From: a virus
Strand: one strand, 5' to 3'
DNA length: 64,000 bases
IMG/VR virus record: IMGVR_UViG_3300049979_000188
Under the pieces are notes generated by a model. The model was not told where the DNA came from and did not search any database. It saw only the letters and a list, made by a program, of their open reading frames with translations. Below, piece by piece: positions 37,944 to 63,813 of this stretch (position 1 is the first letter of the stretch; each line of letters begins with the position of its first letter). Both the position numbers and the translations under genes were made by a program.

Positions 37944-38067
37944 CTTACGAAAAACCCTGGCTCAAAAAAAGTCAGGGTTTTTTACGCCTCAGCGTAACCT
38001 TTCCTCCGGGCTGGGCGTAAAAGGACATGTAAGCGGCAACGGAGCGGCTTACCTTACTCCTGCTGCA

Positions 38068-38406
38068 ATGGCTAAAGCTGCACAACCTAAATTTTTCACG
38101 CGTAGGGCGGCTGTCAACCCGGGCTTGCCTACTGCTAAACGCCACGTAGACTACCTGGTTAAAGCCGCCACTCAGGCACGGGCACTGGCCTTACTGGAGC
38201 TGGTTAAAGTCCCTGGGCGCGGGCATAGTCTATATTATACCAACGCCCGTGAGTTTCGACTCTACTGGGTTACGCGCTCGACTGCGGAGGCCGATGCATC
38301 CATGCTTGAGTTGAGCTGTGATGCGCTCGAAGGTATCTGGTGGAAGCCGGATATGGACCCGGACAGTGAGTATGTGTGCCTGTGGTATACTCCCATTACG
38401 GAATAA
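38068..38406 (+). CDS. Cassette hypothetical protein
   Basis: ORF directly after promoter plus hairpin. Confidence 0.75.
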   Translation: MAKAAQPKFFTRRAAVNPGLPTAKRHVDYLVKAATQARALALLELVKVPGRGHSLYYTNAREFRLYWVTRSTAEADASMLELSCDALEGIWWKPDMDPDSEYVCLWYTPITE

Positions 38407-38425
38407 ACATCCTTCGCTTACTCTT

Positions 38426-38944
38426 ATGCAAGACCCGAATTTTCAAACCCACACACTGGCTGATAATAATCAAACCCTGGGCGCGCTGCGTAAGCTGCTC
38501 AATGAGCTAGCTGAGAAAGACCCATCCCTGGATGAGCTTAAGCTATGGCAAGGGACGGACTCGGGTGAGGGCTACCTGCGCCTGTGTACGGTTACGGTGG
38601 CCAACGCCCGCCACGTAGACTACGACGGCGACGATGCCGATGATGAAATGTTCTGCGTAGAGCCCGACGAGGAAGGACACCGGGAGGCTGATATGGGGCC
38701 TGGCTACGTACACCGAGAGCTTGACCGCCAGGGGAACCTTAACGGTTATAAGAACGTGCTGGTGCTCGGCGACCACCGCACCCCGCTTGACATTGCGCAG
38801 GCAATCACCAGCGAGCAGGAACGCCTGGCGAAACAAGCAGCTGAAAAAGAAGCGAAGGCCAAACGTGAGGCGCTTAAAAACGACCCCGAGTACCAACGCC
38901 TGCAAAAAGAGGCCAAGGAAGCACGTAAAAAATATGGTCTGTAA
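38426..38944 (+). CDS. Hypothetical protein with C-terminal coiled coil
   Basis: Start moved to MQDPNF. Confidence 0.7.
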   Translation: MQDPNFQTHTLADNNQTLGALRKLLNELAEKDPSLDELKLWQGTDSGEGYLRLCTVTVANARHVDYDGDDADDEMFCVEPDEEGHREADMGPGYVHRELDRQGNLNGYKNVLVLGDHRTPLDIAQAITSEQERLAKQAAEKEAKAKREALKNDPEYQRLQKEAKEARKKYGL

Positions 38945-39003
38945 GTGTAACCTTTTCCCAGGGACCTGCGTAAAAGAACTCAGAAACCAACCTCCCCTTT
39001 CTC

Positions 39004-39396
39004 ATGGCCAAGCACCTGGAACCCGTCCCCTACGAATCGTTAATCGGCAAACGCGTGCGCGTCTACCGCAACCTGCACAACTACGGCGGGGAGCACAAGG
39101 TCTTGTACTCGGTGCAGCACAAAGGGCTCGTGATTGCCCACGTACCGCAAATTACCCTGGATGAGGTGAGCTTCTCAGTGCAGCCCGCTGGCCAGGCCAA
39201 GGTACGCCAAACCAAACGCAAGCAGGTCCACGCCTTTGTCAACGGAGTCGTGGCGGCACCCGGTCACGCCCTGGTGCGCAAGGTGAGCTACAACCCGTAT
39301 CAGACCGATACCTTCGTGCTGGCCGGGCCGCTGGGCCAGGTGCCCGTGCTCGCGGCCGGGCGCATCAACATTACCCAGGTCGGGCTTTTTATTTAA
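39004..39396 (+). CDS. Conserved phage hypothetical protein
   Basis: RVRVYRNLH...F.VQPAGQAKVRQTKRKQVHAFV motif recurrent in phages. Confidence 0.75.
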   Translation: MAKHLEPVPYESLIGKRVRVYRNLHNYGGEHKVLYSVQHKGLVIAHVPQITLDEVSFSVQPAGQAKVRQTKRKQVHAFVNGVVAAPGHALVRKVSYNPYQTDTFVLAGPLGQVPVLAAGRINITQVGLFI

Positions 39397-39487
39397 AAAA
39401 AGATTGCCCCGGCGTGTAACCTTACCGCCGGGGCCTGCGTAAAAGAACCATCAACGGCAACGGAGCCGGGTCTCAGCTACTTTCTTC

Positions 39488-40387
39488 ATGTCTACTACCA
39501 CGCAGCTTAAGCAGCTACAAGCTGAAATTGCGCTCTTACAAAATGTGCGTAACTCGACTGAATACGTAGCATTAGAAGCAGAAATCCAGCAGCTACAAGG
39601 CCGCCTAAGGCAGGCAAAGCAGAATTACCAGGCAAGCGTAGCCGATGAAATTGCGGCCAAGGAATCGGACATTAAGGCCCTTAAGATGCAGCAGCTTCGG
39701 GAAACCAATCCGGCTTTCCAATACTCCATACCGCTATTAAGTTGGTTTAACCGGTGGGGACGTGGCATAGATTGGGGTCAGGGTGGGGTTCGCCTGCGCT
39801 GGGTATCCCCGAATCAAAACTGGGTGATTATCACCGCAGGTGGCGGTACGGCTGGACAAGGCACCCCAATGGGTACGGGTGCCTACTACTATGCGGCGGC
39901 GACGCACTATCTTTACCGGGTAGTAGATGGAGCTACGCACATGAACTCCACGTCCAAATATCAGTTTTCCTTTGAGGGGCGGTTACTCAAGGCTACGAAA
40001 GAGGAATGGATAGCCTTTGCCCTCATCCAGGACGAGGGTTGCCCCTTCACGGAGAACCTGGACCGTTCAACACATGGCGGCTACCGGGTTGGAGACTACG
40101 TCTTTAACGAGATGCGTAGAACCTACGGTTTCATTTGGGAGCTGAATAACTACCAACATAAGCCCACGGTTAGCTTCCGCGATGACCCATATTATAACCG
40201 TCCTATCGGCTACCCACTGGAACGAGTTGAAACGGTCCTACGCCTGGCTAAGCGCGTAGAGGAAATGGACTATCAAGGGATGTTTGACCTCGTCTCACCC
40301 GATGACAACCCGGCTAACCAGGCGCTGCGAGAAGTCCCCCCGACCTCTCCCCTACCCGACAAGAGCCTGGAAGGGTTTTTACTATAA
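39488..40387 (+). CDS. Cassette hypothetical protein
   Basis: 299 aa, N-terminal coiled coil. Confidence 0.75.
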   Translation: MSTTTQLKQLQAEIALLQNVRNSTEYVALEAEIQQLQGRLRQAKQNYQASVADEIAAKESDIKALKMQQLRETNPAFQYSIPLLSWFNRWGRGIDWGQGGVRLRWVSPNQNWVIITAGGGTAGQGTPMGTGAYYYAAATHYLYRVVDGATHMNSTSKYQFSFEGRLLKATKEEWIAFALIQDEGCPFTENLDRSTHGGYRVGDYVFNEMRRTYGFIWELNNYQHKPTVSFRDDPYYNRPIGYPLERVETVLRLAKRVEEMDYQGMFDLVSPDDNPANQALREVPPTSPLPDKSLEGFLL

Positions 40388-40485
40388 GGAGCAAAAGAAT
40401 TTTTATTTTTACGTAACCTTTCCCGCCAGCCCGGCGTAAAAGGACCAGCAACGGCAACGGAGCCGGGGCTTAACCAACCAGTATC

Positions 40486-41274
40486 ATGCGTACGATTGAA
40501 GAGGCAATTGCCAACCTGCTAAAAGAGAATACGGGTAGCCCAATGGGTGACCATGCTGGCTACGCGGGCGGGCGACACTGGGAGAAAAACCAGGGTCGTA
40601 ACTTTGCCTCGCAGCCCAGCTTTGTGGTGGAGGGCTACACCCGTGGGGAAACGGACGAGGCAGGCTGGGCACCCATTCAAAACAGTGACCTGGGCTTTAC
40701 CATCAATGTCTATCACTACTTGGTTAGCCGGCTGCGGGTGACTTCGGAAAGTGAAAACGAAAATGCCCTGCTGCAAACCCTGCTGCAAGCGGACCCCGAC
40801 GACTTGTACGAAATCGGCTACATGCAGCAGTTTGCCACCAGCCGCAACACGGATACGGATAACTACTGCATCTGGCTGAGCCCGCTCAACACCTACAACG
40901 GCGAGTGCCTGCTGAGCCAGACGCTGCAATTCAGCATCTACGACCACGAGGGCACCAGCTTTATCGTGCTACAAATCCACGGCGGGGCCGACGTGCGCGG
41001 TGGCTATACCACGCCCCAGGTATTCGAGATTGCCAATGACGAGCGCGATGGGTTCGTGACGGGCTATATCGGCGTAGACGCTACGGCTCAGGTAGACGGC
41101 GAAACCGTACGCTGGAACTCGGAGAGCGGCTACGGCGGCTCGTTTAGGGCCGTAGACGACTCGGACGACGTGGAGGTACCCGAACTGGAACTTGAATGGC
41201 ACGCCGAAACCAACACCTTCCGCCTGGCCCAAACCCACGAGGCCGTAAGCTTCTACCCCGAGTATAGCCTCTAA
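40486..41274 (+). CDS. Cassette hypothetical protein
   Basis: 262 aa; IHGGADVRGGYT motif. Confidence 0.75.
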   Translation: MRTIEEAIANLLKENTGSPMGDHAGYAGGRHWEKNQGRNFASQPSFVVEGYTRGETDEAGWAPIQNSDLGFTINVYHYLVSRLRVTSESENENALLQTLLQADPDDLYEIGYMQQFATSRNTDTDNYCIWLSPLNTYNGECLLSQTLQFSIYDHEGTSFIVLQIHGGADVRGGYTTPQVFEIANDERDGFVTGYIGVDATAQVDGETVRWNSESGYGGSFRAVDDSDDVEVPELELEWHAETNTFRLAQTHEAVSFYPEYSL

Positions 41275-41400
41275 GCTACTAAAAAACCCTGACCCTAAAA
41301 AAGTCAGGGTTTTTTTCTATGAAGATGTAACCTTTCCCAGGGCTCTGCGTAAAAGGACATGTAAGCAGCAACGGAGCTGCTCACGCTAAAGACCCTTACC

Positions 41401-41928
41401 ATGTCTCACATCATTCGCTACCGCATTAGCCCGGCCCACTTGCTAGCTGAACAAGCTTATAGCGCCACCTACCAAGGCAGACAACATGAACTGGCTACTG
41501 AAGTAAACCCGGCTTACCCACTGCTGGCTATTGGCTCGGGGGATACACCCGAGGATGCATACCAGTCGGCAGTTGGCCAAATCGACGGCATGGAGGATGC
41601 CCAAGGCGAGCATTTTGCTTATTCAAAACTACCCAAAGCTGGGCCTAAACGTATCGTAGGTAAAAACGAACTGCTGTCTCCCGAAGAAGCCGTAGCAACG
41701 CAATATTTTGTCTTGATTCGTTTCGCCTTGAGTGGGGGTGACGAAACGGAAAAGTCATATACGGTTAAGGTGCGCTTGACTGGGGGTCGTTGGAGCCGGT
41801 TTGCCTGGCGCATTGCTAAAGAAAAGGTAGAGGATGCGCTGGCGCATTTACGTAAGACGCTCGGACCCCACGAGACGAAGGTGCTCGAAATAAAAGGCCC
41901 CGTGCTTGAACGTCCTACGTGGTACTAA
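41401..41928 (+). CDS. Cassette hypothetical protein
   Basis: 175 aa after cassette. Confidence 0.75.
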   Translation: MSHIIRYRISPAHLLAEQAYSATYQGRQHELATEVNPAYPLLAIGSGDTPEDAYQSAVGQIDGMEDAQGEHFAYSKLPKAGPKRIVGKNELLSPEEAVATQYFVLIRFALSGGDETEKSYTVKVRLTGGRWSRFAWRIAKEKVEDALAHLRKTLGPHETKVLEIKGPVLERPTWY

Positions 41929-42019
41929 TTTTTTTCACTTGAAACGTAACCTTTCTCCCAGCTCCGCGTAAAAGGACATGTAAAGCGCAACGGAGCACTT
42001 TACGCTAACGACCCCTACC

Positions 42020-42784
42020 ATGAAAAGCATTGAGAAGTACAAGTTCAGTGGCCTGACCATCAAAATCAAACAGGACACGGACCCCAGCAACCCGCGCAAA
42101 GAGTTTGACAACGTGGGCACACTGGTATGCTGGCACCGCAATTATGAGCTGGGCGACGAGCCCGAGTTTGGTGGGGGCCGCCGGGGTTTGCCGAGCCTGG
42201 ACGCGGGTGAGTACCGCCTGGCGATGGCCGAAGTATACGACCCCGGCATTAGCGACTGGACGGATACGGCCATGAGCCGGTTGTGGGATAAAGCCCAGGC
42301 CGCTTCGAGCAGCAGCATTGGCGTGCTCACCGATGCCGAAATGCGGGCATACGAGCTAGCGGAGTTGGAACTGCGCCAGCGGGTAGGGGAGCGGGTGCAG
42401 CGCGTACTGGATACGCACTACATCGTGCTGCCGGTCTACCTCTACGACCATTCCGGCCTGGCCATGCGGGTAGCTGACTTTGGGGACCGTTGGGACTCGG
42501 GCCAGGTGGGCTTTATCTACTGCACCCGTGAGAAGGCCCTGCGCGAATGGGGCAACGGCGGGCTGGTGCTGAGTAAGAAACGCCGCCAGCAAGCCGTTAC
42601 CTACCTGACGGGGGAAATCGAGACGTACCACGAGTACCTCAGCGGGCAGGTATACGGCTACGAAATCAAGCGCAAGGGCGAAGGCGTGATTGACTCGTGC
42701 TGGGGCTTCTACGGCGGGGTAGACTACGTGAAAACCGAAGCCGAAGCAGCGGCTGCCTGCCTGGTAGAAACCGTTGAAGCATAA
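42020..42784 (+). CDS. Conserved phage/mobile-element hypothetical protein
   Basis: LPVYLYDHSG...WDSGQVGFIY...YLSGQVYGY...DSCWGFYG. Confidence 0.8.
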   Translation: MKSIEKYKFSGLTIKIKQDTDPSNPRKEFDNVGTLVCWHRNYELGDEPEFGGGRRGLPSLDAGEYRLAMAEVYDPGISDWTDTAMSRLWDKAQAASSSSIGVLTDAEMRAYELAELELRQRVGERVQRVLDTHYIVLPVYLYDHSGLAMRVADFGDRWDSGQVGFIYCTREKALREWGNGGLVLSKKRRQQAVTYLTGEIETYHEYLSGQVYGYEIKRKGEGVIDSCWGFYGGVDYVKTEAEAAAACLVETVEA

Positions 42785-42890
42785 GGGCAATGGACCCCGC
42801 CCTAACCAGCGGGGTCTTTTTTTTGTTATTTTGTAACCTTTTCCCAGGGCTCGCCGTAAAAGGACTATCAACCAACTACTCACCCCTACC

Positions 42891-43349
42891 ATGCAAGTAA
42901 CTACCACCGCCACACTGTGTGTCTTTCGTGATGCCCGAGGTAACGTGCAGACCCGTGTACTAGCTGACTTCTACGACAACATCTGCCTAGATGGCTACGA
43001 TGCCCAAGGTGTCCGCCAGTCGTATGACGACGAGGCCCGCCACATTGGGGAATGGCTTGAAAAGCACCCCAGCCTGAACTACAAGAGCCAGGAGATAGCC
43101 GTTGTGGCCGACGTGAAGCTGCCCCGTCGGTTTGCCGATGGGGCCCTGGTGCAGCACCACGGGCTGGACGTGACGGTGATAAACTACCAAGAGGAAGCGG
43201 AGCAGTACGTGGTGGAAGTACCCGCTTATGAGGTATTCGATTTTACGGTAAAACTCAAGAACGGTCAGCCGCGCCCGGTACTGCGCGTGGAGCCAGCCAG
43301 TCAATACAAAGCACCCGAGGCCGAGCTTAACTACCCTGAAAAATACTAG
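42891..43349 (+). CDS. Cassette hypothetical protein
   Basis: 152 aa. Confidence 0.75.
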   Translation: MQVTTTATLCVFRDARGNVQTRVLADFYDNICLDGYDAQGVRQSYDDEARHIGEWLEKHPSLNYKSQEIAVVADVKLPRRFADGALVQHHGLDVTVINYQEEAEQYVVEVPAYEVFDFTVKLKNGQPRPVLRVEPASQYKAPEAELNYPEKY

Positions 43350-43441
43350 TAAAATTACGGCGAGCCTTGTAACCTTTCCCCAGGGCTCGCCGTAAAAGGA
43401 CTATCAACGGCAACGGAGCCGCTTAACTAACCCCCGCTAGT

Positions 43442-44266: not shown

Positions 44267-44390
44267 GTAGTGAAACCCTGACTCCTAAAAAAAGTCAGGG
44301 TTTTTTTCTGTAAAGTTGTAACCTTCTCCCCGAGCCTGTCGTAAAAGGACATGTAAAGCGCAACGGAGCACTTTACTAACCCTAAGCGGT

Positions 44391-44900: not shown

Positions 44901-45001
44901 ATCAAGTGCCCAGGCGTAAAAAACCTGGGCTTTTTTTCCCAAAAACCCTAACCTTTTCGCCGAGACGGGCGTAAAAGGACTCAGAAACCAACCACACCCC
45001 C

Positions 45002-45415: not shown

Positions 45416-45418
45416 GTT

Positions 45419-45796: not shown

Positions 45797-45891
45797 CCCA
45801 AAAAAGTTTGCCTACTACCGTAACCCTTTCTAAGGGCTCGGCGTAAAAGGACCAGTAACGGCAACGGAGCCGCTACTAAAAACCAACCAGT

Positions 45892-46482: not shown

Positions 46483-46681
46483 TTCACCCGCTTTTCCCTT
46501 TACTACATGAAGTTCGCCCGAATCCGCGCTACCCGCACTACCAAGATTAAACGCTAAGCATTCCAGACCCTGACTCGTAAAAAAGTCAGGGTTTTTTTTG
46601 TGTTTGAACGTAACCTTTTTACGATACCTGCGTAAAAGGACGTGTGCTGCGCAACGGAGCCCAGCCAGTAACTTACGCGCC

Positions 46682-47158
46682 GTGGATATTTTTCAGACCA
46701 TTACCCCCGAGCGGGGCATCGTCAACCACACCCGGTTTGGTGGGCAGTTGCAAGCCTACTGCCAACTCGATAAAATGGTAGAAGTTTTACCTGAGTACGG
46801 CTTTATGGACGGGGGCTGCCTTTCCTTGGCCCTGGCCTTACAAGCGCTCATCCCCGGGAGCCAGATTTGCTTTGTCTGCACCCTGGCCATGCCGCAGCAC
46901 GCAGTTTTGCGTTTACCGGCTCCCTTGCATCGGGAGGCCCTTTACCTGGATGCTGACGGCCTGGCCAACGGTCCGGAGCTCTGCGAGAAAATGCGCACCG
47001 TGGAAAACCTGCGCGGCCGCGTATTCGTGGCCGAGCTCGACTGGCGCGAGGTTATTCCCAGCGGCATCTGCGACGGGGATAACGCCTCGGTAAAGCTACG
47101 GGAGGTGCTGCGCCCGCTGCTTACCCGCAACCCCTGTTCCCCGGCCTGGCTCGCCTAA
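46682..47158 (+). CDS. Cassette hypothetical protein (GGC...H...D motif)
   Basis: DGGCLSLALAL...QHAVL...YLDADG; GTG start after hairpin. Confidence 0.65.
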   Translation: MDIFQTITPERGIVNHTRFGGQLQAYCQLDKMVEVLPEYGFMDGGCLSLALALQALIPGSQICFVCTLAMPQHAVLRLPAPLHREALYLDADGLANGPELCEKMRTVENLRGRVFVAELDWREVIPSGICDGDNASVKLREVLRPLLTRNPCSPAWLA

Positions 47159-47249
47159 TTTTTTTTCGTAAGAACGTAACCTTTTCCCCAAGTCCGGCGT
47201 AAAAAGACGCATACCAGGCAACGGAGCCTGATTACTAACTTCACCTAAC

Positions 47250-47648: not shown

Positions 47649-47730
47649 GTTAGTCAAAACGTAACCTTTCCTCCGAGCCCTGCGTAAAAGGACTCAGAAA
47701 CCAACCCCTCACCCCTTTTTCTTCTTCTCC

Positions 47731-48174
47731 ATGTCTACTGCCGTTTCAACCCGCACCATCGCTGAACTCAACCTGGGTGACTACCCGCTGAGCCTTTCGC
47801 CCGAGCAACTGCTTTTTCTCTTTGGCGAGCAGGTGGCTATCAACGAAACCGACCACTTCTGCCGGGTAAGCCCCACCCAGCCCCAGCTGCTGGAAGTATG
47901 GGTGAAGACGCGCGGCGATAAGAACTACGAGTTGCTCCCAGCCCACCTACCCACTGACTGGCTGCCCTTCACGGTAGACGCACGCTACGAAGACAACGAC
48001 CAGCCCTACACGCAAACGGTACTGGCCACCGACGAGGCCCAGGCCAAGCGCATCGTGCAAACGCTGGTCTACTACAGCAACCACGGTTCGGACGCAGACC
48101 CGGAGGAATTTTACGAGATGCTCGACGAGGACAGCCTGGAAGTAGCCGCTGGCTATCACAGCTACACGAACTAA
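47731..48174 (+). CDS. Cassette hypothetical protein
   Basis: 147 aa. Confidence 0.75.
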   Translation: MSTAVSTRTIAELNLGDYPLSLSPEQLLFLFGEQVAINETDHFCRVSPTQPQLLEVWVKTRGDKNYELLPAHLPTDWLPFTVDARYEDNDQPYTQTVLATDEAQAKRIVQTLVYYSNHGSDADPEEFYEMLDEDSLEVAAGYHSYTN

Positions 48175-48271
48175 GTTTTTTTAGTATAAAGCGTAACCTT
48201 TCTCCCATCCCTGCGTAAAAGGACATGTACCCGGCAACGGAGCCGGGTACACAACCCCCCTTCTCTTCCCA

Positions 48272-48700: not shown

Positions 48701-48748
48701 ATGGCTAAGATTAAAGCAACCAAAACCACCAAGACGCGCAAGCGCTAA
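48701..48748 (+). CDS. 15-aa basic peptide MAKIKATKTTKTRKR
   Basis: Only ORF between promoter 48650-48677 and terminator near 48760. Confidence 0.55.
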   Translation: MAKIKATKTTKTRKR

Positions 48749-48875
48749 CTGGCCACCTGAAAAAACCTGACCCTAAAAAAGTCAGGTTTTTTTATTGCTG
48801 GGATGTAACCTTTCTCCTGGCCCTGCGTAAAAGGACATATACCAGGCAACGGAGCCTGGGTTAACCCCTACCACC

Positions 48876-49502: not shown

Positions 49503-49623
49503 GTAAAAACCCTGACCCTAAAAAAGTCAGGGTTTTTTTCTGTGAACCTGTAACCTTTCCTCAGGGCTCTACGTAAAAGGAGGTGTAAAGCGCAACGGAG
49601 CACTTTACTCAAATTCCAACCAG

Positions 49624-49899
49624 ATGCAATCCATCACCAACATCAACCTGGACGACCAACTGCGTCAAGCCGGCACGGGCCACGTCGCCGTGGTAGAGAC
49701 CAAGCCGGACCCTGAGGACCGCCACGATAAGCCCAACTACGAAGTGATGGGTGCCATCCAGGCCCTACTGCAACGAGCGAACCTCGAAAGCGAGAACGGC
49801 TTCACGGTCGTCATTGATGTGCAGGGCAGCACGGAAGCAGGGCGTATCCTTCAGTGCGTCGTACTTGACAATTGCCTCGGGCCACTAGCCATTCACTAA
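49624..49899 (+). CDS. Cassette hypothetical protein
   Basis: 91 aa. Confidence 0.7.
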   Translation: MQSITNINLDDQLRQAGTGHVAVVETKPDPEDRHDKPNYEVMGAIQALLQRANLESENGFTVVIDVQGSTEAGRILQCVVLDNCLGPLAIH

Positions 49900-49941
49900 C
49901 AACTTGCCCGGGGCAACGGAGCCCCGGGCTACTATTTTTCC

Positions 49942-50277
49942 ATGAAAGATACCCCCCGCATCCTGGCCACCTACGTGGCCCAGCGCATCGCCGAAAACGG
50001 TGACGTAGAAAACACGGGCAAGACCCAGGACTTCAACGTTACCAAAACCATCCTCAATATGCCCGTGGCCGAGATTAAGGCCCTGGAAGACGACCAGTAC
50101 GAAACCGATGCCTTGGTAGCCGAAGCCTCGCGCTGGGCGCGGGCACGCTCGCTTAAGCACCCCTTTGCCATCCGCGTGGAAGACGACCTGGCCCTGTTCT
50201 TCGAAGGGTTCGGCTGTAACCTGCTCACCCTCACCCAGGAGCAAGTGGACCGCATCCGCACGGAGCTCGGCTACTAA
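49942..50277 (+). CDS. Hypothetical protein preceded by a promoter-less AACGGA hairpin
   Basis: 111 aa. Confidence 0.75.
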   Translation: MKDTPRILATYVAQRIAENGDVENTGKTQDFNVTKTILNMPVAEIKALEDDQYETDALVAEASRWARARSLKHPFAIRVEDDLALFFEGFGCNLLTLTQEQVDRIRTELGY

Positions 50278-50369
50278 ACTTTTTTTCTTTTCTGCGTAAC
50301 CTTTGCGCCGAGCCCTGCGTAAAAGGACCATGAAGCGCAACGGAGCGCTTCACTACAACCCTCTTTTTT

Positions 50370-50825: not shown

Positions 50826-50920
50826 TTAAAAAAAAGTCCCTGGGGATGTAACCTTTCCCCAGGGACCTGCGTAAAAGAACACATACCAGGCAACGGAGCC
50901 TGGACTAACTCCATCCCCAC

Positions 50921-51163: not shown

Positions 51164-51255
51164 TATTTTTTCAGTTGAAAACGTAACCTTATCTCAGGGC
51201 TCTGCGTAAAAGGACATGTAAGCAGCAACGGAGCTGCTTATTAATTGCCGCCAAG

Positions 51256-51853: not shown

Positions 51854-52006
51854 CGCTCACCTTCCAGCCGTTTGCCCTGCTTGCCGCATCCAGCTTGTGG
51901 TAATGGGTACAAAAGTTTTTCTGTAAAATTGGTAACCTTTTCACTGGCTACCCCGTAAAAGGACTATCCTGGGCAACGGAGCCCGCGACCAACCAACCCC
52001 CCTACC

Positions 52007-53160: not shown

Positions 53161-53278
53161 GGAAGAGAACCCCGAAGAAATTCGGGGTTTTTTTACGGTT
53201 TAGTGTAACCTTCTCCCAGGGCTCGTCGTAAAAGGATACATAACCGGCAACGGAGCTGGTTACCCAACCCCTACTACC

Positions 53279-53653: not shown

Positions 53654-53776
53654 AGGAAAAAACCTGGCCCTAAAAAAGTCAGGTTTTTTTCTTCCGTAAA
53701 AGTGTAACCTTTGACCCCAGCTGGGCGTAAAAGGACCATCAACGGCAACGGAGCCTGCGACTTCTCCCCTACCACC

Positions 53777-54196: not shown

Positions 54197-54314
54197 GCAA
54201 ATCCCCGGCCCTAAAAAAGCCGGGGATTTTTTCATGACTACCGTAACCTTTGCCCCGGGCTCTGCGTAAAAGGAGTATTCCTGGTAACGGAGCCAGGGGT
54301 TTACCGTAGCTGAG

Positions 54315-54869: not shown

Positions 54870-54917
54870 AAGGACCTGTAAGCCGCAACGGAGCCGCTTA
54901 CCTTACTAATTCTTACC

Positions 54918-55487: not shown

Positions 55488-55608
55488 ACCCAAAAAACCC
55501 CAGCTAAAAAAGTTGGGGTTTTTTTGCGTCTCAGCGTAACCTTTGCTCAGGGCTCCCCGTATAAACCTCAGAACGCAGGCAACGGAGCCTGGGTTAACCC
55601 CTACTACC

Positions 55609-55938: not shown

Positions 55939-56057
55939 CCAGCCTAATCTACTAAAAACCCCAACTTTTTTAGTTGGGGTTTTTTTCACCCTTAACGTAA
56001 CCTTTTCCCAGGGACCTGCGTAAAAGGACTCAGAAACCAACCCCCCCCTTTCTTTTT

Positions 56058-56807: not shown

Positions 56808-56878
56808 CGTAACCTTTCTCCCTGCCCTGCGTAAAAGGATTTACAAACGGTAACGGAGCCGTTTGTAAATCCTTTTTT

Positions 56879-57211
56879 ATGAAGACCTACCCTATCGAAG
56901 AAGAAGCACGAGTTGATTTTGAAGTGGCTAATGCACTTGAGTCAGTGGGCTACCCCTACCGCTATGCCAGTGAAGTTCCACTTAATATCCCAACCCTGAA
57001 TGCGGCACAGCGTTGGCTACGTATTGCGCGTGACCAGCACATGGAAGTAGAATACACTGGGGATGGTTTTACCGTATCGGTACTTGGCAGCCAGTTTGGC
57101 CGCCTCTATGAGAATACGCAAAAGCCTAACAATCCAACCCGGTTTGCTACGTACGAGGACGGCCAGCGGGCTGGGGTATTGGAAATGATTAAATTAATTT
57201 CCCCCAAATAA
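56879..57211 (+). CDS. Cassette hypothetical protein
   Basis: 110 aa. Confidence 0.7.
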   Translation: MKTYPIEEEARVDFEVANALESVGYPYRYASEVPLNIPTLNAAQRWLRIARDQHMEVEYTGDGFTVSVLGSQFGRLYENTQKPNNPTRFATYEDGQRAGVLEMIKLISPK

Positions 57212-57287
57212 CGCAACCTTTCTCCCAGGCCCGCGTAAAAGGACATGTAGCCGGTAACGGAGCCGGCTACACAACTTCTCCCCTACC

Positions 57288-57620
57288 ATGCATACGCAAG
57301 ACCAAAAGACGCAAGCCTTAAACGCGGCGGTCAATTCTTTCTCGGCCAAACCGGAGAGCACTGCAACCGAAGCAATGGGCGAGCTTGCCCAGCATACGTT
57401 CGAGGCTGGCTACGCCCTGGGTCGCACGCCCGAGCGCGAGTTCACCGCCGACGAGCTCTATAAGATTCAACAGGTTCTTTTCGACCTGCGGTGGAACTGG
57501 GGCAGCTTCGCCCAAACAATGGGGCAACTGCTGCGAGCCGGTGACAGCAGCACTCGCCAGAAGCTGGCCAAGGGGTTCCCCCACGAGTTCAGCGCCTGGC
57601 TCGAAATGGCCAGACGGTAA
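57288..57620 (+). CDS. Cassette hypothetical protein
   Basis: 110 aa; GSFAQTMG.L...GD....KL.KGFP motif. Confidence 0.7.
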   Translation: MHTQDQKTQALNAAVNSFSAKPESTATEAMGELAQHTFEAGYALGRTPEREFTADELYKIQQVLFDLRWNWGSFAQTMGQLLRAGDSSTRQKLAKGFPHEFSAWLEMARR

Positions 57621-57726
57621 GCAAAAGACCCCGTCGCCTAACGGGGTCTTTTTTTTTTAGCTACTAGTGTAACCTTTCTCCGGGCTCTGCGTAAAAGGAC
57701 TCAGAAACCACCTAACCACTTTCGCC

Positions 57727-58014
57727 ATGAACGAGCACGCAACCCCCGACCTGACTAGTACGCGCATTGGCCAGGAACTACCCCTGCGGCACTTGCAAGG
57801 GGACGAGTACACCTACATCCAGAACGAGCAGGAGCTCGCCGCTACCGTAGCTGACGTGAGCGAAGACGTGCTGGCTAAGCACATCAAGGCCTACGAGAAT
57901 GATACCATCACTGGGGCAATGGTGAAGGTGGGTGAGGGCTGGTACGACCAAATCTGGCTCACCACGGATAGCGCGCCCTATCATTTAGCCTCACTTTATA
58001 CCCGCGCCCTGTAA
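57727..58014 (+). CDS. Cassette hypothetical protein
   Basis: 95 aa; stop within -35 element. Confidence 0.7.
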   Translation: MNEHATPDLTSTRIGQELPLRHLQGDEYTYIQNEQELAATVADVSEDVLAKHIKAYENDTITGAMVKVGEGWYDQIWLTTDSAPYHLASLYTRAL

Positions 58015-58118
58015 CCCACCCGGTTCTTTTTACGTATACAGACCATAACCAACCCGCCCGTGTTTCTTTCGAGAGGCACGGGCCGGCTTGTCAGTACCCA
58101 CTTCATTTTCTTACTGAC

Positions 58119-58415
58119 ATGACCGACCAACTCCAACTCCTGACCCTTGTACCGCGCCAGTTTTACCTGCGCGAAGACACCCGCTACGCCTACGGCAAAG
58201 ACGGGAGCGACCGCGAGCCCCTCACGCCCCAGCAGGCCCAGGAGCGCGTGCAAGAGGCCCTGCTGGCCCAGGACGTGAGCCTGCAAGACGTGGCCCCGTT
58301 CCTGGGTGCGCTGCTGGTGGGCACGCCCGCCGAGCTCCTGCTGGAAGAGTCCTACCCCCGCGCCAGCTGCGACTGCTGCAACGACCATGTAAAAGTTTTT
58401 TTGGTTGTGGTGTAA
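58119..58415 (+). CDS. Hypothetical protein with CDCC motif
   Basis: 98 aa; SCDCCNDH. Confidence 0.65.
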   Translation: MTDQLQLLTLVPRQFYLREDTRYAYGKDGSDREPLTPQQAQERVQEALLAQDVSLQDVAPFLGALLVGTPAELLLEESYPRASCDCCNDHVKVFLVVV

Positions 58416-58485
58416 CCTTCTGCTAAGGTTAACCGTAAAAGACCGTATACCGAGCAACGGAGCTCGGTATACGAGCCTTACTACT

Positions 58486-58776
58486 ATGCAAGCTGAGACT
58501 ATTTTAGTAACCCCCGCACACTGGACGCTGAGTAATCTAAATGGGGTGACAACAATGGCGGATTTTAACCGTCGCCAGAAAAACGATAAATCCCCCCGTA
58601 TTCTTCGGCAAGGGACTAAGCAAGCCCGCACTAGCGGTTACGTTAGCTGGTTACGCAAAGCAACTGAGTCTGGTAAGATTGAGCTCTTACTATGGGTGGG
58701 TGCCACTAAAATGCAAGCAGTCCATAACGCGCGTCTCAGCGGCGAACCCGCCAAACAGGGTTATTCTGTAAAATAA
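58486..58776 (+). CDS. Cassette hypothetical protein
   Basis: Start moved to MQAET. Confidence 0.65.
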   Translation: MQAETILVTPAHWTLSNLNGVTTMADFNRRQKNDKSPRILRQGTKQARTSGYVSWLRKATESGKIELLLWVGATKMQAVHNARLSGEPAKQGYSVK

Positions 58777-58867
58777 AAAGTTTTTTCACTAAACGCAACT
58801 TTCTCCGAGGGCTCTGCGTAAAAGGACACATAAAGGGCAACGGAGCCCCTCGCAAACCTTCCCTACC

Positions 58868-59443
58868 ATGCAAGCTGTTATCACGAACGCGCTGCTTCAG
58901 AACGCCCGTCAACTCAACGGGATGCAGGACGAGCGCACAACTAGCGCCATCATCCCCACCCTCGACGGCACCTACCTCATCGAGGTAGTAGGCTGGGTGA
59001 TGCTGCAAAAAGTTACGGCCGGCCGCTACCGCCTCGTTATTCAGCGCGGCACGGCTTACTTCTACAAGCCGAAAGGAAGCAAGCTCATCGTGGCCCACCA
59101 CGAGAGCGTCGTGCGGATGGCCAACGGCCGGGCTGGCGACCTTAACGGCATCAATTACCTGGGCGTAGGTAACGAGACTACCCAGGCCGCCCTGGATGCC
59201 AGCCAGCCCGAGCTGAGCCTGGGTGCGTGCTACGATATTGCGGTAACTTTTGAGCCCGGTAGCCAGCACCAAAACTACGTTATTCGCCAGCAGATAAGCA
59301 ACGTAGATAACGAGGCGAAGGAATATGAGGTTACGGTTCTTTCGCCCGTTCCTGAACCAGGCAAGGTAGTGACCGTGCGCCGCAGCTTTTACAAGCTCCA
59401 CCGCCAGGTGCGCGAAGATACCCGCCTGACCCTGGTCGGCTAA
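58868..59443 (+). CDS. Cassette hypothetical protein
   Basis: 191 aa. Confidence 0.75.
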   Translation: MQAVITNALLQNARQLNGMQDERTTSAIIPTLDGTYLIEVVGWVMLQKVTAGRYRLVIQRGTAYFYKPKGSKLIVAHHESVVRMANGRAGDLNGINYLGVGNETTQAALDASQPELSLGACYDIAVTFEPGSQHQNYVIRQQISNVDNEAKEYEVTVLSPVPEPGKVVTVRRSFYKLHRQVREDTRLTLVG

Positions 59444-59559
59444 TTAGATGGACCCTGACAGGAGATTGTCAGGGTCCATTTATTTTTTCGTAAACTTGTA
59501 ACCTTTGACTCCTCACCCTCGTAAAAGGAGGCAGAAACCAACTAACCCCTTTTCTTCTC

Positions 59560-60015
59560 ATGGATACCTTACTCGCTGCTGCCCCCACCGCCACTAGTTC
59601 TAACGCCGAGGCTACCTTGCAAGAGGGCCTACGCTGGCTGCGTCACCACAATATTCCTTACTACAACGCCCAGCCAGGGAAGGTAGCGCTGCTGGGGGAT
59701 AACGAGGTAAATGCGCAGCCGCTGGTGGGGCGGTTCGGTCCGTTGCGCTGCCACCAACTCACGGTAGTCGAGGCGGCTACCGGCCTGCCCCTGACTGTTA
59801 CCAGCGGCACCCAGCTGTTGGCGCTGGCCGTGGACCTGACCCGGCCCCAGCCGCGTATCCTGGTGGATGCCTTGACCCCGCAGGGCCGTAAACGCGAGCT
59901 GCTGCTCACGGCTCGCCAGGCCGACCTGGCCCGGGGCGAGGACACCAACCATTCGCTGCTGGCCGACGTGCTGGCCCGGCTGCGTGCCCTGCAAAAAGTT
60001 CGCGTTAGTCGCTAA
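59560..60015 (+). CDS. Cassette hypothetical protein
   Basis: 151 aa. Confidence 0.7.
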   Translation: MDTLLAAAPTATSSNAEATLQEGLRWLRHHNIPYYNAQPGKVALLGDNEVNAQPLVGRFGPLRCHQLTVVEAATGLPLTVTSGTQLLALAVDLTRPQPRILVDALTPQGRKRELLLTARQADLARGEDTNHSLLADVLARLRALQKVRVSR

Positions 60016-60124
60016 CCACGAAAAACCCTAACTAAAAAAAGTTAGGGTTTTTTTGGCTACCTTTGTAACCTTTCTGCGAGCCCTGCGTAAAAGGAGGCAG
60101 AAACCAACCAACCCCGCTAACTTT

Positions 60125-60412
60125 ATGTGCACCGAAACCCTGAACACCCCCAAGTGGATTACCACCGATAGTGACACCCGGCAAAAAGGCCGCCAGCTCG
60201 GGCCTGGGGTGTATGAGTTTAAGGAGCGGCGCAACGGCCAGAAGTTTCGCCGCACGGTGGTGCTGGCCGACTACTCTACCGAGCGCCAGGAATACTATAT
60301 CAGCGCCTACTACGGCTCCCTGGCGAAGTTGCGCGCTGAGTTCCCCGAGCCGGAAGATGCCGACTGGTTGCTGGCTGAATGTATTTTTGAGCAATTGAGC
60401 TATTATTCGTAA
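60125..60412 (+). CDS. Conserved phage hypothetical protein
   Basis: WITTDSDTRQ.GRQL....YEF...YISAYYGSL...LAECIFE; stop within -35 element. Confidence 0.7.
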   Translation: MCTETLNTPKWITTDSDTRQKGRQLGPGVYEFKERRNGQKFRRTVVLADYSTERQEYYISAYYGSLAKLRAEFPEPEDADWLLAECIFEQLSYYS

Positions 60413-60465
60413 CCTTTTCCCAGGGCTCGGCGTAAAAGGAGGCAGAAACCAACCCCTTACTTCCA

Positions 60466-60774
60466 ATGGAAAAGAAACTTGTATCCTGGGCCACATTCAG
60501 TAAGCAGGATGGGAAACACCTCCCGCGCAAACGGCGTGGCGACTGTGCGGGCTTTGGCGGAGTAGACGTGGTAGACCCTACTTTACGGGCGGCTGGTTAT
60601 AGTCGTCGTTCGGAAGATGGTATACTGGGCTTTGATAAACCTAAAACACTCGCAAATCAACTCTTTAAAGAGTTTAGTGATGAGATAAATGGTATAGCTG
60701 TTTATCACGTAGCTCGCCACCGGGCCGATATGGATGGTTTTACGCTCAATCTTTATTTTCTTAAAAATGCTTGA
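60466..60774 (+). CDS. Cassette hypothetical protein
   Basis: 102 aa. Confidence 0.65.
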   Translation: MEKKLVSWATFSKQDGKHLPRKRRGDCAGFGGVDVVDPTLRAAGYSRRSEDGILGFDKPKTLANQLFKEFSDEINGIAVYHVARHRADMDGFTLNLYFLKNA

Positions 60775-61069
60775 CTTCACCCCCAGCACCCTGGCCCGCT
60801 TGCACAAGCAGCGCCCCAGCACCGGCAACACCCTTACTCACTCGGTGCCCCTGGGCCTGGGTAAGGCGCTCGTAAAAGGCGAGAAAAACGGCCTCTGTAA
60901 TCGCAGCGCCTGCTTGAAGCCGGGCGCTACCTTTCGCCACATCGGCAATGGCCTCTACTACTGCCCCGAGTGTGCGGGGCTCATCAATTACCCCGGTGGC
61001 CAGGCCGACGCGCAGCGCCTCTTCGGCCGGCCCCTACTGTGCATGGTAGACCCTGAAGACGCAAAATAA
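60767..61069 (+). CDS. Putative zinc-finger protein
   Basis: CNRSAC...YYCPECAGLIN. Confidence 0.65.
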   Translation: MLDFTPSTLARLHKQRPSTGNTLTHSVPLGLGKALVKGEKNGLCNRSACLKPGATFRHIGNGLYYCPECAGLINYPGGQADAQRLFGRPLLCMVDPEDAK

Positions 61070-61157
61070 TTTTACGTAAAGCTGTAACCTTATCTGAGCG
61101 AGCTGCGTAAAAGGACACATACCGGGCAACGGAGCCCAGTACTACTACTCTCCCCAC

Positions 61158-61583
61158 ATGGTTAAGTTAACTGACACTGTACTTAAAAACCAGGCGGCTT
61201 TCCTGCTCAATACCAGCAGCAAAAACATCTACCTGGCCGCCGTACCCGCCGATGGTGACCCGGGTGCTCTGCACTACCAGGGGCAGGTCTACGAGTTCCA
61301 ACTCGACTACAAGGGCATCGTGCCCGACAGCTTGGTAAACACCGGCCGGGCCACGGTTACGATTGTGGTGAAGCGTGACTGGCTCGACGGTCGGGCCACG
61401 GCACAGGAGCTGTGCATCTTTTACGGCACGGGCACCCCGGCTGACAGCACGCTCTGGCCCGAGCAGTGGAAGCAGGTACGCACCAGCCTCAATTATTGGG
61501 AGTGGGTAGCCAAGGAGTTGCGCCTGCGCCGCGAGTACCGCGAGCGCGTCCTGCTCGACTACCCCGACATGTTTACCAAATAA
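61158..61583 (+). CDS. Cassette hypothetical protein
   Basis: 141 aa. Confidence 0.7.
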   Translation: MVKLTDTVLKNQAAFLLNTSSKNIYLAAVPADGDPGALHYQGQVYEFQLDYKGIVPDSLVNTGRATVTIVVKRDWLDGRATAQELCIFYGTGTPADSTLWPEQWKQVRTSLNYWEWVAKELRLRREYRERVLLDYPDMFTK

Positions 61584-61682
61584 ACGTAAAATAATCGGCA
61601 GCAAGTGTAACCTTGCTGCCGAGTCCTGCGTAAAAGGACCATGAAGCGCAACGGAGCGCTTCACTTTACCCCTCCTACTCTT

Positions 61683-62069
61683 ATGGAATACAATGGCACC
61701 CACTACGGCGCAATGTTCAGCGTCTTTCAGGGCTACGTCGCGCAGCAAGCTGACCAACGCAAAAACATGGAGGATGCCTTGGTCTCCTACTTGAAAAGTG
61801 CTGAGGTGACCCGGTTCCTGGTCAGCGATGGCAACGAGCCCTGCCTGGTGGAAGTTATCCAGAATGCCCACCTCAACCCGCCCGTACTGGAAAAAGACGG
61901 CCAGCTGCACTTTATCAGCACCCAGGGGCTGCACACGGCTCAGGGCCTCAAGCCGTTGCGTTGTTTCACGGATGCCGAACTACTAGCCGTCGGTGCGTAC
62001 GTGCAGCAGTGGTATCGTTACCACTACTTTGGCTACCACCAGCCCAACCCCTTTCCCAGCGCCGAATAA
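61683..62069 (+). CDS. Cassette hypothetical protein
   Basis: Start moved to MEYNG (track start lies inside the leader hairpin). Confidence 0.7.
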   Translation: MEYNGTHYGAMFSVFQGYVAQQADQRKNMEDALVSYLKSAEVTRFLVSDGNEPCLVEVIQNAHLNPPVLEKDGQLHFISTQGLHTAQGLKPLRCFTDAELLAVGAYVQQWYRYHYFGYHQPNPFPSAE

Positions 62070-62166
62070 AAAAACCTCGGGGGAACGTAACACTTCCCCC
62101 GAGCCCTGCGTATACTACCTTACCAACCGGGCACCAATGCCCACTTAACCCCCCACACCCCCTTTT

Positions 62167-62586
62167 ATGGCTGTATCAGATGTAGCCTCCGTTCTCGCCA
62201 CCCTGCAAAGCTTCGGCTTTAGCGGTAAATTCCAGGCCGATGGCACCCTGGGGTTCAACCTGGCCAGCCTGGCCACCGATGAGCTCAGCAAACTGCTGGC
62301 CTTTCGCCGTAGCTACGGCCACCCCATCGCCCTCAAGCGTAGCGGCACCGGCCTGCGGGTGAGCTTCACGCCCGGCGTGGAGCCGGTAAATCAACAGGCG
62401 GTAAACTTGGAGTTCACCAAGATTATCGAGCAGGAAAAACGCCTCAGCCCTACTGGCCAGGGCTACAATGTACACACTCTCAACGACCCCGAGTTTGTGG
62501 CCCTGGTAGACTACCAGAACTACAAGGATAAGCCCGTTACGCTCAAGCGTAGCGGCACCGGCCTGCGGGTTACGGTGGGCAACTAA
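62167..62586 (+). CDS. Protein built of two tandem ~70-aa domains
   Basis: LKRSGTGLRV twice; identical 29-bp DNA at 62332-62360 and 62542-62570. Confidence 0.75.
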   Translation: MAVSDVASVLATLQSFGFSGKFQADGTLGFNLASLATDELSKLLAFRRSYGHPIALKRSGTGLRVSFTPGVEPVNQQAVNLEFTKIIEQEKRLSPTGQGYNVHTLNDPEFVALVDYQNYKDKPVTLKRSGTGLRVTVGN

Positions 62587-62708
62587 GCAAGAAAACCCTG
62601 ACCCTAAAAAGTCAGGGTTTTTTTATAACTCTACGTAACCTTTCCCCCGGGCTCTGCGTAAAAGGACTATAATCGGCAACGGAGCCGACTACTATTTCCC
62701 TCCGCCTC

Positions 62709-63101
62709 ATGGATTTTTCGTATCAGCACCTGGCCAACGCTTACGCCCTGTTCAACAACTACACCCAGCAAGAATACGAGCAGCGCCGCAGCATTGTTGA
62801 TGCCATTGCCGGGGGCGTGCGCACCGAGCGGCTGGCCCCCTACCTGGAAAACGGGTTGCTCTCGGTGAGCCTGCTGCACGAAAAGGCCCGGTTCTTTTTG
62901 ACGGATAAGAAGCTGCTCGATTTTGGCAAGCCAGCCGAGGTGCTGGCCATTGGCGAGGACCGGGTGTATACGCCCATTGGCTACCTGAGTATGGAAAACC
63001 TCAGCAACCAAGATTTGGTGGCCGTGGCCGGGTGGGTACAGAAGATTTACGTGGATATTGAAATTGGCGAACAGGTTGGCCAGCGCACTCGTCCCAGCTA
63101 A
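62709..63101 (+). CDS. Cassette hypothetical protein
   Basis: 130 aa. Confidence 0.7.
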   Translation: MDFSYQHLANAYALFNNYTQQEYEQRRSIVDAIAGGVRTERLAPYLENGLLSVSLLHEKARFFLTDKKLLDFGKPAEVLAIGEDRVYTPIGYLSMENLSNQDLVAVAGWVQKIYVDIEIGEQVGQRTRPS

Positions 63102-63191
63102 TTTATTTTTCGTAAACTTGTAACCTTTACCCGACACCCACGTAAAAGGATACATAACCGGCAACGGAGTCGGTTAGTCAACTTCCCTCCC

Positions 63192-63515
63192 ATGTTAGAG
63201 TTAACCAAGCAAGCCCTGCTGAGTCGCATTTTGGGCAGTCCCCTGCGTCTTCGTAAAGCCACCCGCTTTCGCCGTAACCAGCTCAAGAACCTGGCCCGCC
63301 GCAAGGGCTACCGCCTGCTGCGCGTCTACACCCGGCACATCGGCTGGATTTACCGCATCGAAATCCTGCCCTATCCCGGTAACGGGGAAAAGTTAATCCG
63401 CACCTACGACTACTGCAAAACCCAGGCCGCTACGGCCGCTGAGCGCCTGGCCCTGCACCTGCTGGGAAAACCCGACATTAGCTGGAAACGTAAAAAAAAG
63501 CTAGTTTCGTTGTAA
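63192..63515 (+). CDS. Basic cassette hypothetical protein
   Basis: 107 aa, R/K-rich; stop within -35 element. Confidence 0.7.
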   Translation: MLELTKQALLSRILGSPLRLRKATRFRRNQLKNLARRKGYRLLRVYTRHIGWIYRIEILPYPGNGEKLIRTYDYCKTQAATAAERLALHLLGKPDISWKRKKKLVSL

Positions 63516-63587
63516 CCTTTCACAAACTACTCCCGTATAAAGTATCAGAAAGCCAGGCAACGGAGCCTGGCTTAACTTTCTAGTCCC

Positions 63588-63728
63588 ATGCTAACTGTAA
63601 GCAAAAAAACACGTAAGCGCCTTAACGCACAAGATAAACGCACCCTGGCTATGCTCGAAGCGGTGATAAACCCCAGCCAGGAAGTACTAGAGCACATTGC
63701 GACGCTCAAAAAAGAACAGAAAGACTAA
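63588..63728 (+). CDS. Small hypothetical protein (46 aa)
   Basis: MLTVSKKTRKRLNAQDKRTLAMLEAVINPSQEVLEHIATLKKEQKD directly after cassette; below track cutoff. Confidence 0.6.
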   Translation: MLTVSKKTRKRLNAQDKRTLAMLEAVINPSQEVLEHIATLKKEQKD

Positions 63729-63813
63729 AAGTTGCGTAACCTTTTCCCTACCCCTCACGTACAATAGACATCTCCCCGGCAACGGAGCCGGGGAGCTTTC
63801 CTCCCCATTGGTT

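Follow-up and report, generated by a model that had tools for sequence, protein, structure and literature searches.

A family of 33 leader hairpins with an invariant AACGGA loop in a phage small-gene array, a candidate RNA operator read at its apex

Introduction

Why would a phage place one and the same loop, carried on ever-changing stems, in front of more than thirty of its genes? This question is raised by a stretch of 64,000 nucleotides (nt; hereafter the window) of the virus record IMGVR_UViG_3300049979_000188 in IMG/VR, which is part of a 202,851-bp contig from a leaf metagenome; wherever something is said below to be lacking in the window, the statement applies to the window alone. A first-pass annotation of the window had described, in the leaders of an array of small rightward genes, 33 hairpins with covarying stems and an invariant AACGGA loop, and had proposed that they tag these messages for an RNA-binding factor. 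Here, we analyzed this hairpin family computationally. The explanation we favor, with a probability of about one half, is that the hairpin serves as a 5'-terminal RNA operator of the mRNA, that its apex would be read by a trans-acting protein, and that it would sort the genes of the array into two post-transcriptional classes.

Results

A discrete family of covarying hairpins

In the window, 51 sites of the hexamer AACGGA were counted, whereas shuffled sequences had 27.5 ± 5.9, and none of 100 shuffles reached 51. On the plus strand between 38 and 64 kb, 33 of the 37 sites are surrounded by an inverted repeat, and the four stemless sites (39241, 40650, 41745 and 51001) all lie inside coding sequence. 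The 33 hairpins are all on the plus strand, i.e., in the sense orientation, and extend from 38029 to 63795, counted from the first to the last stem base. A covariance model (R1) was built on the 33 copies and run on both strands with filters off. It returned exactly the 33 copies that the first-pass annotation had counted, at 24-40 bits, and the next matches, at 18 bits or less, were reverse strands of the copies and terminators; no decayed copy or copy with a variant loop was detected on either strand of the window.

Pairing anchored at the loop spans 9 bp and falls to the chance level from the tenth position outward. Stem positions 3-9 are paired in 21-32 of the 33 copies against 12-21 expected, each with four or five standard pair types; position 4, for example, is paired in 32 of 33 copies (C-G, G-C, A-U and U-A) against 14.3 ± 2.8 when partners are shuffled. 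In the structure-pair count, 85.2% of the cells are paired (60.2 ± 1.9 in shuffles) and 74 cells are changed on both sides (26.6 in shuffles). The covariation score was 0.596 against 0.178 for shuffled partners, with none of 500 shuffles reaching 0.596, and it dropped to 0.08-0.18 when the 3' partners were slid by 1-3 columns. The 33 copies are related to each other as paralogous modules and have about 24 different 5' arms; since the slid-partner control preserves the relatedness of the copies, the covariation result still holds. RNAalifold, supplied with no structure, predicted the same helix, as an 8-bp stem with a hexaloop. These data confirm that the hairpin family is real, being discrete, covarying and confined to the sense strand.

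In a search of the whole window against Rfam at gathering thresholds, two tRNAs passed and nothing else did, and at E values up to 5 no match within 37900-64000 overlapped any hairpin. As had been supposed, the hairpin is undescribed in Rfam, and also in the literature searched. Its unusual traits are the copy number, the ten fixed apex bases, the predicted 5'-terminal position and a setting free of Shine-Dalgarno (SD) signals.

A fixed apex on freely changing stems

The loop shows zero substitutions in 33 × 6 = 198 positions. The pair that closes it is C-G in 30 copies and U.G in three, in agreement with the first description, and the second closing pair is G-C in 32 copies and G.U in one. 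Because the loop is fixed while stem pairs 3-9 vary, these data show that a 10-nt apex, 5'-GC[AACGGA]GC-3', is under strong purifying selection. The invariance of the apex excludes a purely structural hairpin, just as the covariation of the stem excludes plain recognition of duplex DNA.

Tolerance of G.T pairs had been taken as a sign of RNA or single-stranded DNA in the first-pass annotation, a view that stands for the closing pairs, where four of four departures are wobble pairs on the sense strand. In stem pairs 3-9, however, G.U and A.C stand at 6:20, no different from the 8:30 of the unpaired flanks, and since this ratio equals the background, the wobble pairs of the stem are weak evidence for RNA.

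We also considered that the repeat works in DNA, as a cruciform, a single-strand hairpin or an asymmetric, stoperator-like operator downstream of the promoter. The asymmetric 10-nt core, its single orientation and its fixed distance from the -10 box would suit such an element, and the mycobacteriophage stoperators, as they are cited in PMC3203893, provide a precedent of many oriented sites in one phage. However, recognition of a duplex does not need covarying flanks, one copy has no promoter (see below), and the departures in the closing pairs are wobbles on the sense strand only. We therefore regard a DNA-level element as highly improbable.

The hairpin lies at a fixed place between promoter and start codon

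The array repeats one module, in which an intrinsic terminator, a promoter (GTAACC-N16/17-CGTAAAAGGAC), the AACGGA inverted repeat, a C/A/T-rich linker and the start codon of a small gene follow each other, and each cassette is closed by an intrinsic terminator. A whole module can be seen at 41327-41403 (+), with the -35 element GTAACC, a 16-nt spacer, the -10 element CGTAAAAGGAC, the hairpin, the G-poor linker and ATG. The pattern GTAAC-N16/17-CGTA has 46 matches on the plus strand from 36 kb onward, 32 of which are followed by the hairpin, and about 14 of the 46 promoter copies are thus hairpin-less. In the left arm, 14 similar promoters lie on the minus strand, none of them (0/14) with a hairpin. 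A CGT box has been taken as a mark of extracytoplasmic function (ECF) sigma factors (PMC9723704), and the array promoter, with AAC at -35, CGT at -10 and a spacing of 16-17 nt, is predicted to be of the ECF type.

The loop starts 21-23 nt (once 25 nt) past the C of the CGTA -10 box. When the transcript start is placed about 12 nt after this C, a position predicted from the usual ECF spacing, the hairpin would begin about 2 nt after the predicted start in 32 copies, with 0-3 unpaired 5' bases before the stem in most of them. On the other side, the start codon follows the loop at 21-30 nt in all 33 copies (mean 24.0, standard deviation 1.8; 23-25 nt in 24 of 33), including one GTG start (46682, copy 9), so that the placement between the -10 box and the start codon reported in the first description is borne out. 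The start distance is more variable in hairpin-less leaders (standard deviation 4.2). The linker of the hairpin leaders contains 6% G against 26% in the region and has no stable fold; folding of the leaders gave a single hairpin with the remainder unstructured. No SD-like motif was found at any of 43 array starts (0/43).

One copy bears directly on what the hairpin belongs to. Copy 14 (49906-49929) is situated between the genes 49624-49899 and 49942-50277, with no GTAAC-N16/17-CGTA upstream. Being promoterless and 21 nt before the ATG of the second gene, it indicates that the element is tied to the gene start and not to the promoter.

The promoter is identical through GGAC in both leader classes, and most hairpin-less leaders open with a conserved TCAGAAACCAACC, as at 47661-47733 (+), where TCAGAAACCAACC follows the same promoter; this conserved opening may be a second leader signal of its own. 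In two hybrid leaders (55572 and 63550), TCAGAA is followed by the hairpin, which suggests that the hairpin acts as a plug-in.

The geometry also bears on two further explanations. In the first, the hairpin is a passive 5' stabilizer or insulator, for which any stable hairpin at +3 would do and the loop would be kept by folding or by homogenization. This would agree with the predicted extreme 5' position, with 0-3 unpaired nt in most copies, and with the presence of other hairpins in two leaders of the hairpin-less class (58011, with 12 bp and UUCG, and 62087). However, ten apex positions remain fixed apart from wobble departures, also in a relative (see below), while the stems turn over; one copy (49906-49929) is internal, away from the 5' end; and nothing in this explanation accounts for the tight start-codon spacing. 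A passive role is, in our view, rather improbable. In the second, set in a host that does without SD pairing, initiation would be raised by contact of the loop (ACGGAG), or of the helix itself, with the 30S platform or with a ribosome modified by the phage. The lack of SD-like motifs speaks for such docking, and so does the tight spacing. The stem ends about 15 nt before the AUG, where the mRNA exit site has its edge, and the loop is the only G-rich accessible motif in a leader of 6% G. Nevertheless, GGAG is 24 nt from the AUG, beyond the reach of SD pairing, and the hairpin-less cassettes, which have the same promoter, are presumably translated without a hairpin. We hold docking to the ribosome to be very unlikely.

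The same loop on a different stem in a relative

A search of other phage sequences, as the first-pass annotation had advised, yielded the same loop on a different stem. It is found on L008, a 1,220-bp contig from another sequencing run that encodes a protein 64% identical to the product of gene 40486-41274. The leader on L008 has the same promoter and loop, with the stem CCCCGC/GCGGGG against CGGC/GCCG in the window. This hairpin scores 26.6 bits with model R1 and lies outside its training set, and in the next cassette another copy begins at the cut end of the contig. In L001 and L007, which are less closely related (44-45% identity to gene 42020), the promoter is retained but the leader of that gene is hairpin-less, suggesting that the tag is gained and lost per gene.

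No close DNA relative was found in the phage collection, in IMG/VR pattern scans or in GTDB genomes. The single match in JGI metagenomes (L002) was of low complexity and was discarded. On L003-L006 (homologs of gene 42020) and on L009 and L010 (homologs of gene 40486), the surroundings are tightly packed, unrelated phage contexts in which the promoter and the hairpin are absent.

The apex compared with known RNA signals

Proteins of the CsrA/RsmA/RsmE type bind A(N)GGA in hairpin loops, and their canonical repression uses a second GGA near the start codon. The analogy to CsrA drawn in the first description holds in part: the loop contains ACGGA, with GGA at loop positions 4-6, and many mRNA leaders carry the site. 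In contrast to CsrA targets, 25 of the 33 leaders lack a further GGA in the interval from the loop to ATG+12 (8 have one), the whole 10-nt apex is fixed, and the check for a CsrA-like protein turned up none among the 120 open reading frames (ORFs) of the window. The likeness to lambda boxB is more remote. There, N loads at a hairpin near the transcript start that has a 5-bp stem, a GNRA-like pentaloop, a boxA partner, two sites per genome and a small basic protein as its reader. The element shares with it a phage RNA hairpin near the transcript start, with a loop that is here predicted to be read by a protein, but has a 9-bp stem, a hexaloop (the difference in loop type on which the earlier boxB analogy fails), 33 sites and a spacing set relative to the start codon, and the transcript is predicted to begin only about 2 nt ahead of the stem.

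Reported targets of ANTAR proteins are hexaloops with A1 and G4 that also depend on which bases form the closing pairs, and one such hexaloop suffices as the minimal target (PMC3369931, PMC8934654). The element resembles the targets of EutV, NasR and AmiR in its short hexaloop hairpin with A1 and G4 (33 of 33 copies), its free paired stem and its specific closing pairs. However, the classical arrangement is a tandem pair of hairpins in competition with a terminator, whereas here a single hairpin occurs without terminator overlap, a T-run following the hairpin in copy 56843-56866 only; moreover, all six loop bases are fixed, 33 copies are present in one phage, and the ANTAR domain (PF03861) has no match among the 120 window ORFs, where a crude ANTAR motif scan was also blank.

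A further possibility is that a factor is loaded onto the nascent hairpin, as at nut/boxB, put or an ANTAR target, and enables RNA polymerase to read through the cassette terminators. Every cassette is closed by such a terminator, and an A1/G4 hexaloop with specific closing pairs is the ANTAR rule (PMC3369931, PMC8934654). Yet the hairpin is single and not dual and does not overlap the terminator; each cassette has its own promoter, so that read-through is unneeded; the gene start, rather than polymerase, is implicated by the fixed start distance and by the intercistronic copy; and neither an ANTAR gene nor an N-like gene was seen in the window. A loading site is accordingly quite unlikely.

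The T4 endoribonuclease RegB cuts GGAG on early mRNAs, with a preference for an unpaired GGA followed by a constrained G, and its cuts are coupled to end processing by polynucleotide kinase (PMC3014915). Like RegB sites, the hairpin is a phage-wide mark on one message class near gene starts, with GGAG in which GGA is unpaired and the G belongs to the closing pair. Unlike the apex, which lies 24 nt upstream of the start codon and in which GGAG is followed by C and the stem, RegB sites are SD sequences in A-rich single strands. Structure at the 5' end protects a message against 5'-end-dependent decay, and the hairpin is at the predicted 5' end. A programmed cleavage site is conceivable, at which a RegB-like phage endoribonuclease would cut the loop at GGA and the paired G, strip the protective 5' arm and expose an unstructured end, so that the whole class would be switched off together at a set time. 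The apex offers an unpaired GGA with a paired G, and a small RNA of this arrangement is cut efficiently by RegB alone (PMC3014915). This view gains slightly from one of the 120 window ORFs, which matches the 'cyclic-phosphate processing receiver' domain (PF20274, E = 1.1e-19). On the other hand, no RegB, RelE or barnase-like match was found among these 120 ORFs, the RegB consensus GGAGRAYARAA is not reproduced, since GC and the stem follow GGAG, and the downstream ORF would retain its whole unstructured leader, leaving decay as the only route to inactivation. We consider programmed cleavage unlikely.

Taken together, by these comparisons the apex follows three recognition rules in part (those of ANTAR, CsrA and T4 RegB) and none of them fully. 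Iron-responsive elements are likewise hexaloops on free stems in the 5' leaders of several mRNAs, where one protein blocks initiation; they are eukaryotic and cap-dependent, and the analogy is one of logic only. For many oriented, start-linked motifs in one phage, the nearest phage precedent is the start-associated sequence (SAS) and extended SAS (ESAS) of Cluster K mycobacteriophages, in which SAS includes the SD sequence and is 3-7 bp away from the start (PMC3203893). These are also oriented, asymmetric motifs before many non-structural genes, kept across relatives and present or absent per gene family, but in ESAS the arms are conserved and the spacer is variable, whereas here the arms vary and the loop is conserved. 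The PeSL cassettes of T4-type phages have a stem-loop that is a terminator upstream of the promoter (PMC2839356, PMC4122927). There, too, novel small genes are arrayed, each of them flanked by a standard terminator-promoter module; here, in contrast, the hairpin is downstream of the promoter, in the leader.

The individual copies and variant leaders

All copies are on the plus strand and are given with their R1 score and with the distance from the loop to the start codon, which is ATG unless stated. Copy 1 is at 38029-38052 (loop 38038-38043; 33.5 bits, +24), and copy 2, at 39450-39473 (27.3 bits, +23), has a short 4-bp GC stem. Copy 3 (40447-40470; 30.7 bits, +24) precedes gene 40486-41274, copy 4 (41361-41384; 31.8 bits, +25) has the same 5' arm as the copy at the cut end of L008, and copy 5 (41980-42003; 33.7 bits, +25) precedes gene 42020-42784. 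They are followed by copies 6 (43403-43426; 30.7 bits, +24), 7 (44353-44376; 36.2 bits, +23) and 8 (45854-45877; 32.6 bits, +23), by copy 9 (46644-46667; 24.3 bits), with the in-frame GTG at 46682 (+23), and by copy 10 (47211-47234; 27.6 bits, +24). Copy 11 (48227-48250; 39.8 bits, +30) has a perfect 10-bp stem. Copies 12 (48839-48862; 32.4 bits, +22) and 13 (49585-49608; 34.3 bits, +24) come before the promoterless copy 14, which has a 9-bp stem (34.5 bits, +21), and copies 15 (50330-50353; 32.7 bits, +25), 16 (50883-50906; 32.3 bits, +23), 17 (51218-51241; 34.4 bits, +23) and 18 (51966-51989; 30.4 bits, +26) come after it. Copy 19 (53240-53263; 33.8 bits, +24) has G.U at pair 3, and copy 20 (53738-53761; 27.4 bits, +24) has 3 bp only.

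The U.G closing pair is found in copies 21 (54277-54300; 29.0 bits, +23), 24 (56843-56866; 33.2 bits, +21) and 25 (57247-57270; 35.0 bits, +26), with copy 22 (54878-54901; 34.0 bits, +25) and copy 23 (55572-55595; 29.9 bits, +22), a hybrid leader with TCAGAA and hairpin, lying between the first two. Copy 26 (58447-58470; 35.8 bits, +24) has a 12-bp stem and is followed by copies 27 (58830-58853; 30.7 bits, +23), 28 (61119-61142; 34.7 bits, +24), 29 (61641-61664; 32.1 bits, +27) and 30 (62669-62692; 34.6 bits, +25). The last three are copy 31 (63154-63177; 31.7 bits, +23), with G.U at pair 2, the other hybrid leader, copy 32 (63550-63573; 31.8 bits, +23), and copy 33 (63772-63795; 36.3 bits, +27).

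Around copy 24 (56830-56879), the DNA repeat extends over 19 bp, into the -10 box, and TTTTTT stands directly 5' of the ATG. On an upstream read-through RNA this copy would resemble an intrinsic terminator, and on a transcript from its own promoter it would be an ordinary hairpin. Past the stem, hairpin leaders resume with TAAC/AACC. The hairpin-less cassettes, which range from 36816 to 60466 (e.g., 47683-47731), open with a conserved (T)CAGAAACCAACC, and a similar stretch, AAACCAACC, is present in leaders of two more distant relatives (L001:1425-1447 and L007:98-126). Two leaders of the hairpin-less class, 58011-58119 and 62087-62167, contain other hairpins after a AACCAACC motif; the 58011 leader is 75 nt long with a 12-bp stem and a UUCG loop, and the 62087 leader has the hairpin GGGCA-CCAA-UGCCC. 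At L007:820-860, the -35 element GTAAC of the next promoter is inside the loop of the preceding terminator, so that terminator and promoter are fused.

Candidate partners and other genes of the window

The antisense of the apex, GCTCCGTTGC, occurs with at most one mismatch at 11 sites outside the hairpins, against 6.7 expected for the whole window. As candidates for a trans-RNA partner these sites were rejected, none of the 11 lying in a plausible RNA, and two TCCGTT sites near the tRNA-Arg gene proved to be within a coding frame.

Two paralogous basic micro-ORFs, MKFARIRATRTTKIKR (46507-46557, +) and MAKIKATKTTKTRKR (48701-48748, +), share A[RK]I[RK]AT[RK]TTK. Their codons differ at 7 of the 10 shared positions, a pattern that hints at selection acting on the peptide. 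An array promoter of its own (48650) precedes the second micro-ORF, whose leader is hairpin-less. In other systems, RNA hairpins are bound by peptides rich in arginine and lysine, and, speculatively, these basic peptides of 15-16 residues could be candidates for the reader of the loop.

The first gene of the array, 36858-37943 (+), encodes 361 aa and has its own promoter variant (CGTTAAAG) and a hairpin-less leader. It gave no match in Pfam, NCBIfam and PDB-sequence searches and has no relative in IMG/VR or in a set of 5.8 billion proteins. Its neighbors in a protein language model, at 0.94-0.95, include sigma-70/ECF clusters; an AlphaFold single-sequence model was unusable (predicted local distance difference test score, pLDDT, 33.5). 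As a lead only, the product may be a divergent sigma factor for the shared promoter.

Other Pfam matches among the 120 ORFs are Peptidase_M50 (two ORFs) and DUF4325 (STAS-like), and further ORFs match a nucleoside 2-deoxyribosyltransferase-like family and the superinfection-exclusion protein GP17. At 9789-11791 (-), a DUF932 protein adjoins a LAGLIDADG homing endonuclease, and elsewhere the left arm has several HNH endonuclease matches, tRNA-Arg(CCG) at 1523-1597 and tRNA-Glu(UUC) at 2601-2675. A Bacteroidota host would fit, its only basis being the absence of SD motifs and the ECF-type promoter; TAnnTTTG is not enriched (26 sites against 28.6 expected), and the homologs of the DUF932 protein are from Verrucomicrobiota, at only 34-35% identity.

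Discussion

In the explanation that we favor, the element would be transcribed as a hairpin that opens the message, spanning about +3 to +26 if transcription starts where the promoter predicts. Its 9-bp stem of free sequence would provide a structured 5' end. A sequence-specific trans-acting protein of phage or host origin, which could be a binder or a nuclease, would dock at the apex. One ECF-type promoter appears to serve 32 hairpin and about 14 hairpin-less cassettes, and since the same promoter stands before both leader classes, the hairpin would split a transcriptional regulon into two post-transcriptional classes. The promoterless copy and the tight start spacing suggest that the element belongs to the message and its initiation region. 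Because the stem ends about 15 nt before the start codon, a bound factor would sit at the upstream edge of the 30S site, which makes control of translation initiation, probably coupled to mRNA lifetime, the likeliest output, in a direction that is inferred. The selection on the apex and the link to gene starts support in part the mRNA tag of the first-pass annotation, while its binder and its effect on expression are predictions from sequence.

Several points weigh against this explanation. CsrA, ANTAR, RegB, S1, KH and other RNA-binding domains have no match among the 120 window ORFs in Pfam and PHROGs. The start site, and with it the 5'-terminal position, is predicted from ECF promoter geometry only. 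The copies are paralogous, and the covariation counts do not represent 33 independent events. The support that wobble pairs lend to a single-stranded sense molecule is thin and comes from the closing pairs only. In addition, relatives with the element number one (L008), and to judge from the distant orthologs without a hairpin, the tag is dispensable for gene 42020.

A bolder form of the RNA operator, which we put forward as doubtful, is a phage-private post-transcriptional code in an SD-less host, in which a new phage factor would read the apex on more than 30 messages and license, time or end their translation. This factor could be the basic peptides of 15-16 residues, or a loop-cutting nuclease together with cyclic-phosphate end-processing genes. 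If such a code exists, it would constitute a new, compact RNA-protein pair and a new way to subdivide a sigma regulon.

Protein-read hairpin operators in general are already known. The timing of phage genes, however, is usually explained by promoters and sigma factors, and the hairpin family implies a second, RNA-level layer for about 70% of a large block of small genes whose products have no assigned role, in a setting of phage genes without an SD signal. Ten fixed bases on a free 9-bp stem could be used as bait for the reader. If the reader is ANTAR-, CsrA- or RegB-like, its family would be extended to a phage-wide role that was not found described in the literature searched; a new reader, together with the hairpin, would make a useful orthogonal RNA tag.

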